Source: a phage. From it: a stretch of DNA of 64,000 nt. The position numbers were made by a program, and so were the translations under genes. Numbering within the stretch: the stretch's first letter is position 1; each line of letters starts with the position of its first letter. The notes beneath the pieces are model-generated. The model had not been told where the DNA came from. It did not search any database and worked only from the letters and a program-made list of their open reading frames with translations. Below, one piece after another: positions 56,330-58,604 of the stretch. The stretch is taken from the sequence record QB031383.1; one strand, 5' to 3'.

Positions 56330-56356
56330 TAGCAAAAAGCCTCCAATAAGGAGGCT
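56330..56356 (-). terminator. rho-independent terminator at the downstream end of the tRNA array
   Basis: Minus strand AGCCUCC-UUAUU-GGAGGCU followed by UUUUUGCU. Confidence 0.7.
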
Positions 56357-56471: not shown

Positions 56472-56550
56472 TGGAGGCGGGAATCGGATTTGAACCGATG
56501 ATCTCCAGCATATGAAACTGGCGAGGACGACCAGACTCCTCTATCCCGCT
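56472..56550 (-). tRNA. tRNA-Met (anticodon CAT)
   Basis: Hand-folded cloverleaf: T-arm ATCGG-TTCAAAT-CCGAT, anticodon loop TTCATAT, CCA encoded; 1-72 position appears mismatched (A/C). Confidence 0.55.
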
Positions 56551-56552
56551 AT

Positions 56553-56627
56553 TATGTATCCCGTGCTGGATTCGAACCAGCATCACAATAAGCTGTGGAA
56601 CTCTTATCCTGTAAGTCTAACGGGAAA
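56553..56627 (-). ncRNA. tRNA-like element, anticodon arm not resolvable (possible pseudo-tRNA)
   Basis: Canonical T-arm GCTGG-TTCGAAT-CCAGC and 6-bp acceptor, packed between two tRNAs, but no standard D/anticodon arms. Confidence 0.3.
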
Positions 56628-56628
56628 C

Positions 56629-56702
56629 TGGTTGTTTCGACAAGAATCGAACTTGTGTCTCACGATTATCAGTCGTGGGTTCTACCATTGAACTACGAAA
56701 CA
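56629..56702 (-). tRNA. tRNA-Ile (anticodon GAT)
   Basis: Acceptor TGTTTCG/CGAAACA, D-arm GTTC-AATGGTA-GAAC, anticodon stem CACGA/TCGTG with loop CTGATAA, T-loop TTCGATT, CCA encoded. Confidence 0.7.
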
Positions 56703-56708
56703 TTTGAT

Positions 56709-56785
56709 TGGTCGGAATTGCAGGATTCGAACCTGCGACCCTACGCTCCCAAAGCGTATGCTCTACCAAACTGAGCTAAATTCCG
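56709..56785 (-). tRNA. tRNA-Pro (anticodon TGG)
   Basis: Acceptor CGGAATT/AATTCCG, D-arm GCTC-AGTTTGGTA-GAGC, anticodon loop TTTGGGA, T-arm GCAGG-TTCGAAT-CCTGC, CCA encoded. Confidence 0.75.
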
Positions 56786-56790
56786 TTATA

Positions 56791-56866
56791 TGGCTGGTCT
56801 GTCTGGATTTGAACCAAACCTACGACAGTCAAAGTGTCGTGTGCTACCGGACTACACTACAAACCA
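56791..56866 (-). tRNA. tRNA-Gln (anticodon TTG)
   Basis: Acceptor with U1-A72, anticodon stem CGACA/TGTCG with loop CTTTGAC, T-loop TTCAAAT, discriminator G, CCA encoded. Confidence 0.7.
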
Positions 56867-56964
56867 ATAAATCATTTAATGAAGGGCAACCAGAAGAGGT
56901 GTGAGAGAAGGAGAAAACCATGAGTAAAAGAGAAAGTTTTCTGGCAACCCTTTATTAAATAATT

Positions 56965-57038
56965 TGGAGCGTTCTACGAGGATCGAACTCGTGCCGCCGA
57001 CTTGGAAGGACGGAATGCTACCGCTACACCAAGAACGC
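56965..57038 (-). tRNA. tRNA-Gly (anticodon TCC)
   Basis: Acceptor GCGTTCT/AGAACGC, anticodon loop CTTCCAA, T-arm ACGAG-TTCGATC-CTCGT, discriminator U, CCA encoded. Confidence 0.6.
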
Positions 57039-57049
57039 CCTACATCTTT

Positions 57050-57079
57050 ACTATACTACATTTTACTATTGGTTGTCAA
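57050..57079 (-). promoter_or_regulatory. promoter-like element (aCTATTGACAa, -10-like TATAGT) directly upstream of tRNA-Gly
   Basis: Minus strand TTGACA-18-TATAGT; one of four copies of the same -35-containing motif. Confidence 0.5.
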
Positions 57080-57352
57080 TAGTTTTATTGAGCGGGACAG
57101 TGACGAGTATCCCATTGGGTGACTAGCCCTACGTTCGGTAAGCTAACTTAAAATAATACAAAACCAAAGTCAAATATTATTCTTCGTTGCTGTCGATGGG
57201 AGAGCCGCTTCTTCTTTTGCCCCATCCAACCCTACTCCGGTCAAGTTTCAGGTAACTCTTTTTGTGATCAACACAATACTAAGAACACTGTCTTTCGAGC
57301 AGACCTTGTGCACAGGATACGACGATCAATCACAGTGCTCTTAATGTTGTGT

Positions 57353-57427
57353 TGGTGCTCCCACTCTGAATCGAACAGAGATCCACGGATTACAAAACCG
57401 TTGTAATAGCCATTATACTATAGGAGC
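57353..57427 (-). tRNA. tRNA-Thr (anticodon TGT)
   Basis: Acceptor GCTCCTA/TGGGAGC (one G-U), anticodon loop TTTGTAA, T-arm CTCTG-TTCGATT-CAGAG, CCA encoded. Confidence 0.6.
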
Positions 57428-57433
57428 AAAGCT

Positions 57434-57511
57434 GGGACTCGGCAGGATTCGATACCTGCAATTCCAGAAGCCTCTTGGCGACTGGGGGGTTTACCTTAAC
57501 TCTACAAGTCC
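57434..57511 (-). ncRNA. tRNA-like element with 8-nt T-loop and no recognisable anticodon arm (possible pseudo-tRNA)
   Basis: 7-bp acceptor GGACTTG/CGAGTCC and T-arm GCAGG-TATCGAAT-CCTGC; internal region forms a long imperfect hairpin instead. Confidence 0.3.
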
Positions 57512-57518
57512 ATAATTC

Positions 57519-57604
57519 TGGCGATGAGTATAGGATTTGAACCTATATCGTTCTTTCGAACACGGATTAACAGTCCGCCGCTTAAACCATTCAGCCAACT
57601 CATC
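57519..57604 (-). tRNA. tRNA-Asn (anticodon GTT) with an unusually long variable arm
   Basis: Perfect acceptor GATGAGT/ACTCATC, Asn-type anticodon arm GCGGA-CTGTTAA-TCCGT, discriminator G, CCA encoded; 15-nt variable region GTTC-GAAA-GAAC. Confidence 0.55.
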
Positions 57605-57610
57605 TTAATT

Positions 57611-57698
57611 TGGTGGTGAGTGATGGAGTCGAACCACCCGAATCGCAATGATAACAGATTTACAGTCTGCCCCGCTACCCCTACGGAATTAACTCACC
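57611..57698 (-). tRNA. tRNA-Tyr (anticodon GTA), type II
   Basis: Acceptor GGTGAGT/ACTCACC, anticodon arm GCAGA-CTGTAAA-TCTGT, long variable arm, T-loop TTCGACT, CCA encoded. Confidence 0.65.
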
Positions 57699-57828
57699 TA
57701 AATACTAATATTTAAATTCTTTTTAAAATAGCCAGTGTTCACACCACTAACTATGAGTTATCGGTAAAGTGGTTACCGCCACTTGCCGAAGATTTACTCT
57801 GCTAAAGTAAGCTATATTAAAAAGAACT

Positions 57829-57918: not shown

Positions 57919-58009
57919 TGGCGGAAGGAGGGAGAGTCGAACTCCCAAGGCTCTTTCAAGCTCGGCGGTTTTCAAGACCGTTTTCGTCGCCACGTCGATT
58001 TGCCCTTCC
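57919..58009 (-). tRNA. tRNA-Ser (anticodon TGA), type II
   Basis: Acceptor GGAAGGG/TCCTTCC, anticodon loop CTTGAAA, long variable arm, T-arm GGGAG-TTCGACT-CTCCC, CCA encoded; D-arm atypical. Confidence 0.55.
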
Positions 58010-58018
58010 ATACTTATA

Positions 58019-58047
58019 ATCTAACATAAAATAATGTTAGTTGTCAA
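58019..58047 (-). promoter_or_regulatory. promoter-like element (aCTATTGACAa, -10-like TTAGAT) upstream of tRNA-Ser
   Basis: Minus strand TTGACA-17-TTAGAT; shares the TATG-TTAG block with the 58605 copy. Confidence 0.5.
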
Positions 58048-58243
58048 TAGTTTTTTAAAACATTTTACCATGAATGGTGACTCCACCAACCCCCGTTCTC
58101 AACGAACGGTGCTCTTCGAGCATTTATGTCTTCTAATATAACCGTGGCCTTTGTTTATAATGTCTGACATACTTGCCTCATTCTCTGCCACCATGATCAG
58201 TAGTGGGTTCAAATCACTTGAGCTAATTCATGTTAAAATGTTC

Positions 58244-58320: not shown

Positions 58321-58395
58321 TGGTGGCCCTGGCTGGTTTCGATCCAGCTACCTATCGGTTATGAGCCGACAGCTCTCCCATTGAGCTACAGGGCC
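58321..58395 (-). tRNA. tRNA with CAT anticodon (Met or lysidine-type Ile2)
   Basis: Acceptor GGCCCTG/CAGGGCC, D-arm GCTC-AATGGGA-GAGC, anticodon loop CTCATAA, non-canonical T-loop ATCGAAA, CCA encoded. Confidence 0.6.
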
Positions 58396-58604
58396 ATAAA
58401 TGTGGTAACAGAGACGCTGACGATTGTAGAGAACCGCTACATTCTCTAAGACCAAGCCCAACTTTCAGCGTAAAAGTTCTTGAGCCGAGACTATTCCTTT
58501 TCCTCTTTGGTAGCTAACCTCTGAAGAAGTAGTCTCTAACACTACCGCAGTGCAAGCCCCTCTTAACAAAAGTCAACGACCCTGTTACCACACTTGATGA
58601 ACGT

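Follow-up and report, generated by a model that had tools for sequence, protein, structure and literature searches.

Putative tRNA-shaped RNAs without an anticodon loop in the tRNA gene cluster of a Phapecoctavirus phage

Results

The stretch of phage DNA analysed here (sequence record QB031383.1, 64,000 nucleotides (nt), referred to in full as the window) carries all of its transfer RNA (tRNA) genes on the minus strand, between positions 56472 and 58395. We found 12 tRNAs in this cluster, ten by ARAGORN and two more, Tyr-GUA and Ser-UGA, by Rfam. Two further tRNA-sized slots of the cluster, which we call element 1 (el1) and element 2 (el2), are the subject of the present study (Table 1). Both lie on the same strand as all 12 tRNAs and are spaced like tRNAs, with 7 nt between tRNA-Asn and el2, 6 nt between el2 and tRNA-Thr, 1-2 nt between tRNA-Ile and el1, and 6 nt, counted from the discriminator, between el1 and tRNA-Met. 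A first-pass annotation had reported two elements at these positions, with tRNA-like spacing, and had claimed that they have paired acceptor stems and T arms and, unlike the other tRNAs, no CCA. These claims were borne out: the measured gaps are 1-7 nt, the stems are paired as described below, and CCA is encoded by 12/12 neighbouring tRNAs and by 0/2 elements, whose 3' ends read ...ACGGGAU-A-CAU (el1) and ...CGAGUCC-C-AGC (el2). Many Escherichia phages that belong to the genus Phapecoctavirus (phAPEC8-like, Stephanstirmvirinae) match the 2.4 kilobases (kb) around the elements with 98-99.8% identity.

Both elements are predicted to form four-arm, cloverleaf-like shapes in which the anticodon loop is absent and the arm itself is present. 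In el1, six of the seven acceptor pairs form, and the D arm, a hairpin of 5 base pairs (bp) with a 4-nt loop at the anticodon position, and a canonical T arm follow in the usual order. In el2, a 7-bp acceptor stem and a 5-bp T stem enclose a weak D region and an extended hairpin (4 bp, a 2x2 internal loop, 3 bp and an AAGA tetraloop) with pair probabilities of ~1.0. The T loop of el2 has 8 nt instead of 7, which had been overlooked in the first-pass annotation. The internal regions had been described there as unfoldable into D and anticodon arms; in fact both fold, and it is the 7-nt anticodon loop that is missing. What stands of that description is that the acceptor and T arms are kept and that a canonical anticodon arm is lacking, with 4-nt loops in its place. 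Compared with a standard upper half (7-bp acceptor stem, 5-bp T stem, 7-nt T loop), el1 fits save for U1xU72, and el2 fits in its stems with a T loop of 8 nt. A canonical anticodon stem and loop (5 bp, 7-nt loop, U33, purine at position 37) occurs in neither el1 nor el2. The fold z scores of the two elements against shuffled sequences were -2.6 to -3.3. Furthermore, el2 has U at -1 and G at +1, which would be a good context for ribonuclease (RNase) P.

No credible call was made at el1 or el2 by ARAGORN in its default, intron and mitochondrial modes. A covariance-model search at a relaxed threshold, a check proposed with the first-pass annotation, gave no normal cloverleaf with an anticodon at either element: the Rfam tRNA model RF00005 matches neither at E<=10, and the scan of the region at the same threshold found no other Rfam family at el1 or el2. 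Both slots are unannotated in the 14 related GenBank feature tables examined, and the match tables list no feature there.

Table 1. Coordinates of el1, el2 and other predicted features of the tRNA cluster in the window
Feature	Position	Strand	Description
el1, tRNA-shaped RNA without anticodon loop	56557..56626	minus	from sequence, fold, homologues and covariation; read 56626 to 56557: UUCCCGU-UAGA-CUUA-CAGGA-UAAG-AGUUC-CACAG-CUUA-UUGUG-AU-GCUGG-UUCGAAU-CCAGC-ACGGGAU-A
el1 acceptor stem	56626-56620 with 56564-56558	minus	U1xU72 mismatch
el1 D arm	56615-56603	minus	CUUA-CAGGA-UAAG; 4-bp stem, loop contains GG
el1 anticodon-position hairpin	56597-56584	minus	CACAG-CUUA-UUGUG; 5 bp, CUUA 4-nt loop
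el1 T arm	56581-56565	minus	GCUGG-UUCGAAU-CCAGC; canonical loop
el1 discriminator	56557	minus	A; no CCA
el2, tRNA-shaped RNA with 8-nt T loop, without anticodon loop	57434..57511	minus	from sequence, folds and model R1; read 57511 to 57434: GGACUUG-UA-GAGUUAAGGUAAACCC-CCCAGUCGCCAAGAGGCUUCUGG-AAUU-GCAGG-UAUCGAAU-CCUGC-CGAGUCC-C
el2 acceptor stem	57511-57505 with 57441-57435	minus	GGACUUG with CGAGUCC; 7 bp, one G.U
el2 D region	57502-57487	minus	GAG-UUAAGGUAAA-CCC; weak, A.C mismatch in stem, GG kept
el2 extended hairpin	57485-57464	minus	CCAG-UC-GCC-AAGA-GGC-UU-CUGG; 22 nt
el2 T arm	57459-57442	minus	GCAGG-UAUCGAAU-CCUGC; 5-bp stem, 8-nt loop
el2 discriminator	57434	minus	C; no CCA
tRNA-Ser(UGA)	57923-58009	minus	Rfam
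tRNA-Tyr(GUA)	57614-57698	minus	Rfam
tRNA-Asn(GUU)	57519..57604	minus	upstream neighbour of el2; CCA encoded
tRNA-Thr(UGU)	57353..57427	minus	downstream neighbour of el2; its RNase P site would set the 3' trailer of el2
tRNA-Ile(GAU)	56629..56702	minus	upstream neighbour of el1
tRNA(CAU)	56472..56550	minus	downstream neighbour of el1
Putative sigma-70-like promoter	58634-58605	minus	consensus scan
Putative sigma-70-like promoter	58018..58047	minus	TTGACA-18-TAGATT with TG; heads the el2 unit; 10/12 consensus matches
Putative sigma-70-like promoter	57050..57079	minus	TTGACA-18-TATAGT; heads the el1 unit; 11/12 consensus matches
Intrinsic-terminator-like hairpin and T run	56338..56356	minus	closes the cluster, downstream of the last tRNA
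Structured non-tRNA stretch	58396-58604	minus	z -5.4
Structured non-tRNA stretch	58055-58243	minus	z -3.5
Structured non-tRNA stretch	57699-57828	minus	z -3.8
Structured non-tRNA stretch	56867-56964	minus	z -5.6

Sequences within the genus were compared by per-feature alignments, because differences in tRNA content between the genomes made a MAFFT alignment of the whole region unusable. By blastn, el2 is confined to Phapecoctavirus, where it was found in 88 records, all with at least 95% identity, and the inserted base of its T loop is invariant in these 88 records. It is present in 11/11 comparison loci, three of which have other genes in place of the neighbouring Asn, Thr and Tyr. Only five of its positions vary: two in a C run (length changes), C27 changed to U opposite G48, one in the internal loop and one in the tetraloop. 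Variable positions thus make up 6% of el2, versus 15-18% of the flanking non-tRNA spacers.

The slot of el1 has a wider distribution. Homologues, searched by blastn over phage records, were found in 78 records, versus 88 for el2. In the Vequintavirinae A73, W70, UPEC06 and LTH01, an unannotated copy with 80-84% identity is located 2 nt after tRNA-Tyr; in the siphovirus phiEB49 the homologue (77% identity) is tRNA-Val(AAC); and in Enterobacter phage SABI and similar IMG/VR contigs a homologous slot follows tRNA-Gln. The comparison with orthologous slots in related phages that had been suggested with the first-pass annotation therefore finds el1 kept in some Vequintavirinae and el2 throughout the Phapecoctavirus loci compared. 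Between the same genomes, i.e., the window and the Vequintavirinae, the identity of tRNAs is 76-77% for Pro, 71% for Met and 74-90% for Tyr, and Gly and Gln are below detection. By these identities, real tRNAs are no better conserved than el1 between the two sets of loci.

In an alignment of 11 el1 sequences, the four helices are 96% paired and 8 pairs have changed on both sides. None of 500 column shuffles (0/500) attained 8, and sliding the partner columns cut the pairing to ~40%. All of these homologues share with el1 a D arm of the form UAGRCUUAnnGGnUAAGA, the T arm, covarying acceptor stems and a position in tRNA clusters. The D and T arms are nearly invariant, and it is the anticodon region that differs by lineage: its loop has 4 nt in Phapecoctavirus, 5 nt (with a 6-bp stem) in the Vequintavirinae, 9 nt in the SABI-like copies, and 7 nt (AAC) in the phiEB49 copy, the one called a tRNA. 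The acceptor 3' strand is followed by CAU or CCU, not CCA, in Phapecoctavirus, and by CCA in the other three groups. The CCA of the Vequintavirinae directly abuts the acceptor 3' strand (ACGGAAA-CCA), and these copies therefore have no separate discriminator base. We regard el1 as a member of this smaller lineage, which includes the tRNA-Val of phiEB49. Compared with ten other Phapecoctavirus loci, el1 has 9 variable positions, located in the hairpin loop, junctions, D loop, position 72 and trailer and including one change of G.U to A-U; no helix is broken. Matches to the el1 D-arm pattern in two IMG/VR loci (L008 and L010; the labels L002-L200 denote the loci examined, mostly IMG/VR contigs) were rejected as unrelated coding sequence.

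In a scan of IMG/VR seeded on the exact 18-nt T arm of el2, 98 stretches matched, and their upstream sequences were mutually unrelated. The 7 nt after the T arm have a perfect complement 42-290 nt upstream at 67/82 unique sites. This complement is usually followed by a D arm, UGGCGGAAG(A)UAGACGC, i.e., U-GGCG-GAAG(A)UAGA-CGC, which is tRNA-Leu-like and has no G18 and G19. We also made a scan that was seeded solely on this D arm and was independent of the T arm. In it, the hairpin before the acceptor 3' strand had an 8-nt loop UAUCRAAY on covarying stems (GCAGG/CCUGC, GUAGG/CCUAC, CCAAG/CUUGG and ACCAG/CUGGU) at 24 sites, a second type, ...GGGUGARAGUCCC..., at about 25 sites, and a canonical T loop at 1 site by the classifier, with two or three candidates by eye. 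The altered T and D loops therefore travel together.

In an alignment of 24 sequences of this family, from which Phapecoctavirus was excluded, 96% of cells in the acceptor, D and T helices pair, and both partners have changed at 12 pairs; acceptor pairing was a selection criterion for these sequences, whereas the exact register beside the D and T arms was not. The 86 unique elements are 66-290 nt long (median 127 nt). Only 2 were called tRNA by ARAGORN, 14 encode NCCA (72 lack it), and 9 have a tRNA within 20 nt. The family spans about 170 viral contigs and several cultured phages, and most of its members are intergenic and co-oriented with the flanking open reading frames (ORFs; 65/79 upstream and 65/78 downstream). 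It is absent from Rfam 15 and from the GenBank annotations of the records examined, and at E<=10 no Rfam family was found at its members in 21 related loci. We found no published description of el1, el2 or the 8-nt T-loop family in the literature searched, which was a limited collection. The 18-mer also occurs 24 times in 596 gigabases of bacterial and archaeal genomes, where ~17 occurrences are expected by chance according to our own arithmetic; ~8 of these 24 sites show the architecture of the family and are probably prophages.

Members were found in several cultured phages. That of Synechococcus phage S-CAM9, 67 nt long with a UUCG-capped hairpin, lies between tRNA-Leu and tRNA-Thr; together with L052, L061 and L019 it is one of the short members that have tetraloop hairpins. 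Lactobacillus phage SAC12B carries one member, and Bacteroides phage BS-TP2 has a related 108-nt element that is tRNA-Leu-like, with a canonical T loop (GCAGGUUCGAAUCCUGC) and a D loop containing GG. In Rhizobium phages of the RHph_TM30 group, the T loop and D loop of the family occur in a permuted, Y-RNA-like unit.

el2 shares the T-arm, hairpin and CCA features by which the family was delimited. Its T arm, GCAGG-UAUCGAAU-CCUGC, is followed by CGAGUCC, which pairs with GGACUUG, in agreement with the 86 elements; a hairpin stands in place of the anticodon loop, and no CCA is encoded. A covariance model built from the 24 sequences without Phapecoctavirus (R1) gave el2 43.7 bits (E 3.5e-8), the top match in the 64-kb window, compared with at most 26 bits for true tRNAs in the window, at most 34 bits for those elsewhere and 16.9 bits for el1, although this score is partly circular because the family was recruited through the T arm of el2 itself. 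From these sequence features, we assign el2 to a phage-wide family that is marked by the 8-nt T loop UAUCRAAY.

Several other variants were observed among the loci examined. In a second class (L112-L186, e.g., L168:1020-1128, L141 and L164; ~25 sites), the D arm is UGGCGGAAGAUAGACGC and the T arm is replaced by a hairpin, ...CAAGGGUGAAAGUCCCUUG.... In L047, L024, L033, L097, L051, L101 and L071, an extra hairpin is present within the D loop after GGAAG, at the place of G18/G19, and in L127 and L121 a canonical T arm is nested inside the insert. In L039:1370-2033 (IMG/VR contig 3300020049_008230), a tRNA and a full transfer-messenger RNA (tmRNA; 118.7 bits) are present and, 125 nt on, a 142-nt family member ending in GCCA. 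L013, L029, L045, L068, L073, L100 and L200, which are unrelated contigs and a Petrimonas genome, have a common acceptor stem, GGAUGGG/CCCAUCC, with differing inserts and a similar U/C-rich trailer (UUUCAC/U, or UCUCUA in L100); this group looks like a fixed scaffold with exchangeable cargo. In RHph_TM30 (L110:1450-2640), ~8 tandem Y-RNA-like units, each starting with GUUGCGA, are located upstream of a TROVE/Ro60 gene; two units match the Rfam YrlA model below threshold, the first has the 8-nt T loop of the family, and no RNA is annotated.

Transcription signals around the elements were called by a consensus scan and are pattern matches alone, which are no proof of transcription. The three sigma-70-like promoters and the terminator-like hairpin (Table 1) may delimit transcription units that hold el2 (Ser(UGA)-Ser(GCU)-structured RNA-Tyr-Asn-el2-Thr) and el1 (Gly-hairpin-Gln-Pro-Ile-el1-Met). 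The ASO2A record has a terminator annotated at the place that corresponds to the hairpin.

As for the remaining genes of the cluster, ARAGORN in its default mode misses tRNA-Tyr(GUA) (57611-57698) and tRNA-Ser(UGA) (57919-58009), and both were detected by Rfam and by relaxed ARAGORN. They are left out of several related phage records in GenBank, or the Tyr gene is labelled pseudo-tRNA. The last tRNA (CAU) has 79 nt, an A1xC72 mismatch and an enlarged D loop, and is named tRNA-Pseudo-CAT in some records and tRNA-Met in others; the second CAU tRNA (58321-58395) is labelled Ile-CAT in one record. Four further stretches of the cluster are structured and are not tRNAs (Table 1). They have no Rfam match, and 3%-15% of their positions are variable within the genus. 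The first, located between a promoter and tRNA-Met, has a 16-bp closing stem. On the plus strand at ~56906-56957, a Shine-Dalgarno-like motif (GAAGGAG), an ATG and a 12-codon ORF (MSKRESFLATLY) lie antisense to the structured spacer that separates tRNA-Gly and tRNA-Gln. An 88-nt insertion between tRNA-Pro and tRNA-Gln in some Phapecoctavirus genomes (ASO2A-type; L002:787-879 versus 56786-56790 of the window) was considered as a third element and rejected; neither structure (z +0.6) nor an Rfam match was detected in it.

Discussion

The explanation that we favour is that el1 and el2 are tRNA-derived genes for stable, tRNA-shaped, non-decoding RNAs, which may be selectively kept in phage tRNA operons. 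We hold it tentatively, at a little short of an even chance. A stack of a 7-bp acceptor stem and a 5-bp T stem suffices for RNase P and for the CCA-adding enzyme, and Escherichia coli matures CCA-less precursors of phage tRNAs, as in the case of T4, by RNase BN/Z or exonucleases followed by CCA addition. The 12-bp coaxial stack of the acceptor and T stems would make el1 and el2 substrates of RNase P at their 5' ends. Their 3' ends could be formed through the CCA-less pathway of some T4 tRNAs, i.e., by RNase BN/Z or exonucleases and then by the host CCA-adding enzyme. Given this stack and this known route of maturation, both RNAs would be excised as species of ~70-78 nt. Because they have 4-nt loops and no anticodon, they would not read codons on the ribosome, and because the constraint falls on the acceptor stem, T arm and D arm, mimicry of the upper half of a tRNA may be their most economical function. 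The least certain step is that this mimicry of the acceptor end and elbow binds, titrates or diverts a factor that recognises this part of tRNA. The factor might be a host defence system or toxin that targets tRNA, or an enzyme of tRNA processing or modification. In the case of el2, the altered elbow would shift the set of factors that recognise it. Among the possibilities raised in the first-pass annotation were tRNA-derived regulatory RNAs. The tRNA-derived origin is supported, since el1 aligns with the tRNA-Val(AAC) of phiEB49 and with tRNA slots and el2 has tRNA architecture; a regulatory or mimic RNA is the reading that the data favour, leaving its target aside.

Several observations weigh against this explanation. 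In el1, 12% of positions are variable within the genus, compared with 0-7% in true tRNAs, the highest value among the tRNA-sized units; it has the 1-72 mismatch, and the CCA of its relatives is lost; and it is missing from some Phapecoctavirus genomes and was not found in the IMG/VR contig of L083. For these reasons el1 is dispensable and could be disappearing, and we would describe it as constrained in shape but dispensable. In the case of el2, the D loop (UUAAGGUAAA) keeps GG and resembles that of a minority of members, e.g., L063 (GCG-UAAGGUAA-CGC) and L098. The D loop of the family is A-rich, of the AAG(A)UAGA type, with a 3-bp stem immediately following the acceptor strand (consensus UGGCGGAAGAUAGACGC), and is usually without GG. 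Furthermore, the 18-mer is a very common T arm of tRNAs (GCAGGUUCGAAUCCUGC, present in the tRNA-Pro of the window itself) with one inserted A; with a difference of one A, convergence or an independent origin could account for it. To these points are added the circularity in the R1 score and the lack of a consistently adjacent protein gene: in an all-vs-all clustering of ORFs from ~95 loci, the largest cluster covered 9 loci.

One alternative is that the elements are processing punctuation, i.e., tRNA-shaped spacers that give handles to RNases P, E and Z, the excised RNA itself being functionless. This possibility, also raised in the first-pass annotation, agrees with their in-line position in polycistronic tRNA units with tRNA-like spacing, and the intergenic, co-oriented arrangement of most family members would suit sites of transcript cleavage. 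It fails, however, to explain the conserved 8-nt T loop with its matching GG-less D loop, or a D arm of el1 whose sequence is invariant across subfamilies, and such punctuation would be redundant because true tRNAs within 1-7 nt already supply RNase P sites. We consider it unlikely.

It is comparably unlikely that el1 and el2 are dead tRNA genes, relics without an anticodon loop and CCA that persist for lack of time or because their deletion would disturb the operon. Such decay could account for el1 as the most variable tRNA-sized unit, with U1xU72, CCA mutated to CAU/CCU and absence from some relatives, and the T loop of el2 may be a single-base insertion into the common T arm that tRNA-Pro carries. 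However, substitutions avoid the helices, being in loops and junctions or keeping the pairs, and more variable positions are found in the spacers than in el2. The anticodon-less state of el1 is common to two phage subfamilies, at 80-84% identity and with covarying stems, while the inserted base of el2 is invariant in its 88 records and defines ~86 unique, stem-covarying elements in unrelated phages. Drifting pseudogenes, the form in which decayed tRNAs had been proposed, are not what this pattern of variation looks like.

That the elements are functional decoding tRNAs, el2 as a tRNA-Leu(CAA) and el1 with a non-standard anticodon loop, is very improbable. ARAGORN at a threshold of 70% (-ps70) does call tRNA-Leu(caa) at exactly 57511-57434 and a tRNA with a 4-base anticodon overlapping el1, and relatives of el1 encode CCA, the phiEB49 copy being annotated as tRNA-Val. 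However, the extended hairpin is more stable than the Leu(CAA) anticodon arm by 8.7 kcal/mol, and the pair probability is 0.0 for this arm versus ~1.0 for the hairpin; the arm has C33 instead of U33; and in natural variants it would lose one of its pairs and have U or A at position 37. In el2, position 73 is also C, the T loop has 8 nt and a long variable arm is lacking, and among the calls of the same relaxed run are clear false positives, both on the opposite strand and over a promoter. We rejected the Leu(CAA) call because of this energy difference, C33, the natural variants, C73, the lack of a long variable arm and the false calls. As for el1, its loop has 4 nt, and the Rfam tRNA model misses both elements. 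Least probable of all, and largely refuted for this phage, is that el2 is a Y-RNA-like partner of the Ro60 (TROVE) protein comparable to YrlA: RHph_TM30 has the 8-nt T loop and an AAGAUAG D loop in a Y-RNA-like unit upstream of a TROVE gene, and YrlA mimics tRNA without a free CCA end (PMC4201824), but tblastn with a phage Ro60 matched 89 phage records, none of them from Escherichia, a TROVE gene is nearby in just 2 of ~170 family loci and none was found in the window, the Rfam YrlA model does not match el2, and el2 has the normal strand order of a tRNA, open ends and no stem with a GNCGAA motif.

Returning to the preferred explanation of stable non-decoding RNAs, we put forward an extension of it with more reserve, as a possibility that falls somewhat below an even chance. 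el2 may be the E. coli phage representative of an undescribed, phage-specific class of tRNA-shaped RNAs, in which the D-loop/T-loop elbow has been rebuilt (an 8-nt UAUCRAAY or UGARAGU-type T loop with a GG-less D loop) and the anticodon and variable region has become a cargo slot of 20 to >200 nt. Such RNAs would be released by tRNA processing and used as tRNA decoys or cargo scaffolds. The class would span Escherichia, Synechococcus, Lactobacillus and Rhizobium phages and many uncultured viruses, and its elbow may have been co-opted into Ro60-linked Y RNAs.

The tRNA-like domain of tmRNA and the eukaryotic mascRNA likewise mimic the acceptor and T arms, have no working anticodon and are processed by tRNA enzymes. 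Unlike the elements described here, tmRNA is aminoacylated and carries an ORF, and ARAGORN and Rfam detect none in this region; mascRNA is eukaryotic, and its Rfam model matched just a true tRNA, weakly.

Closer in setting are RNAC and RNAD (species 1 and 2), stable RNAs from the tRNA region of T4 whose roles are still unknown (PMC3014915; PMC9697503). They resemble el1 and el2 as small non-tRNA RNAs inside a coliphage tRNA cluster, on the tRNA strand and adjoining tRNA genes, and the 3' end of RNAC consists of a canonical T arm and, after it, an acceptor-like strand. They differ in length (119-139 nt versus 70-78 nt), and no sequence similarity was detected, R1 giving no match at E<=0.01. RNAC has imperfect acceptor pairing and a large insert, and RNAD has no tRNA-like fold (z -0.8). 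YrlA (Rfam RF02553) is likewise non-decoding, keeps a D arm, a T arm and an acceptor-like stem, has no free CCA end and occurs in phages (PMC4201824); one Rhizobium phage unit of this type uses the T loop and a variant of the D loop of the el2 family. In YrlA, however, the tRNA-like module is circularly permuted (T arm, loop-closed acceptor-like stem, D arm), which is not the case in el2, and it is tied to a Ro60 gene and a Ro60-binding stem, whereas el2 and most family members are not.

The kind of RNA is itself not new, since stable RNAs that do not decode have been described from phage tRNA clusters, and Y RNAs are known to contain tRNA-like domains. What appear to be new, from the sequence comparisons, are the recognition of both slots as conserved anticodon-less mimics and the widespread family with an 8-nt T loop. 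The usual reading of phage tRNA clusters is that they supply tRNAs for codon usage or against host defence, and a slot that does not satisfy a tRNA model is passed over by annotation pipelines without notice. If it is true that such RNAs bind factors that recognise the acceptor end and elbow, among which RNase P, the CCA-adding enzyme, T-loop modifiers, and tRNA-targeting toxins or defence nucleases would be candidates, they would form a new layer in the contest between phage and host over tRNA. The rebuilt elbow would also be of interest to RNA structural biology, and the pair of a Phapecoctavirus and E. coli K-12 would be a tractable system in which to test it.

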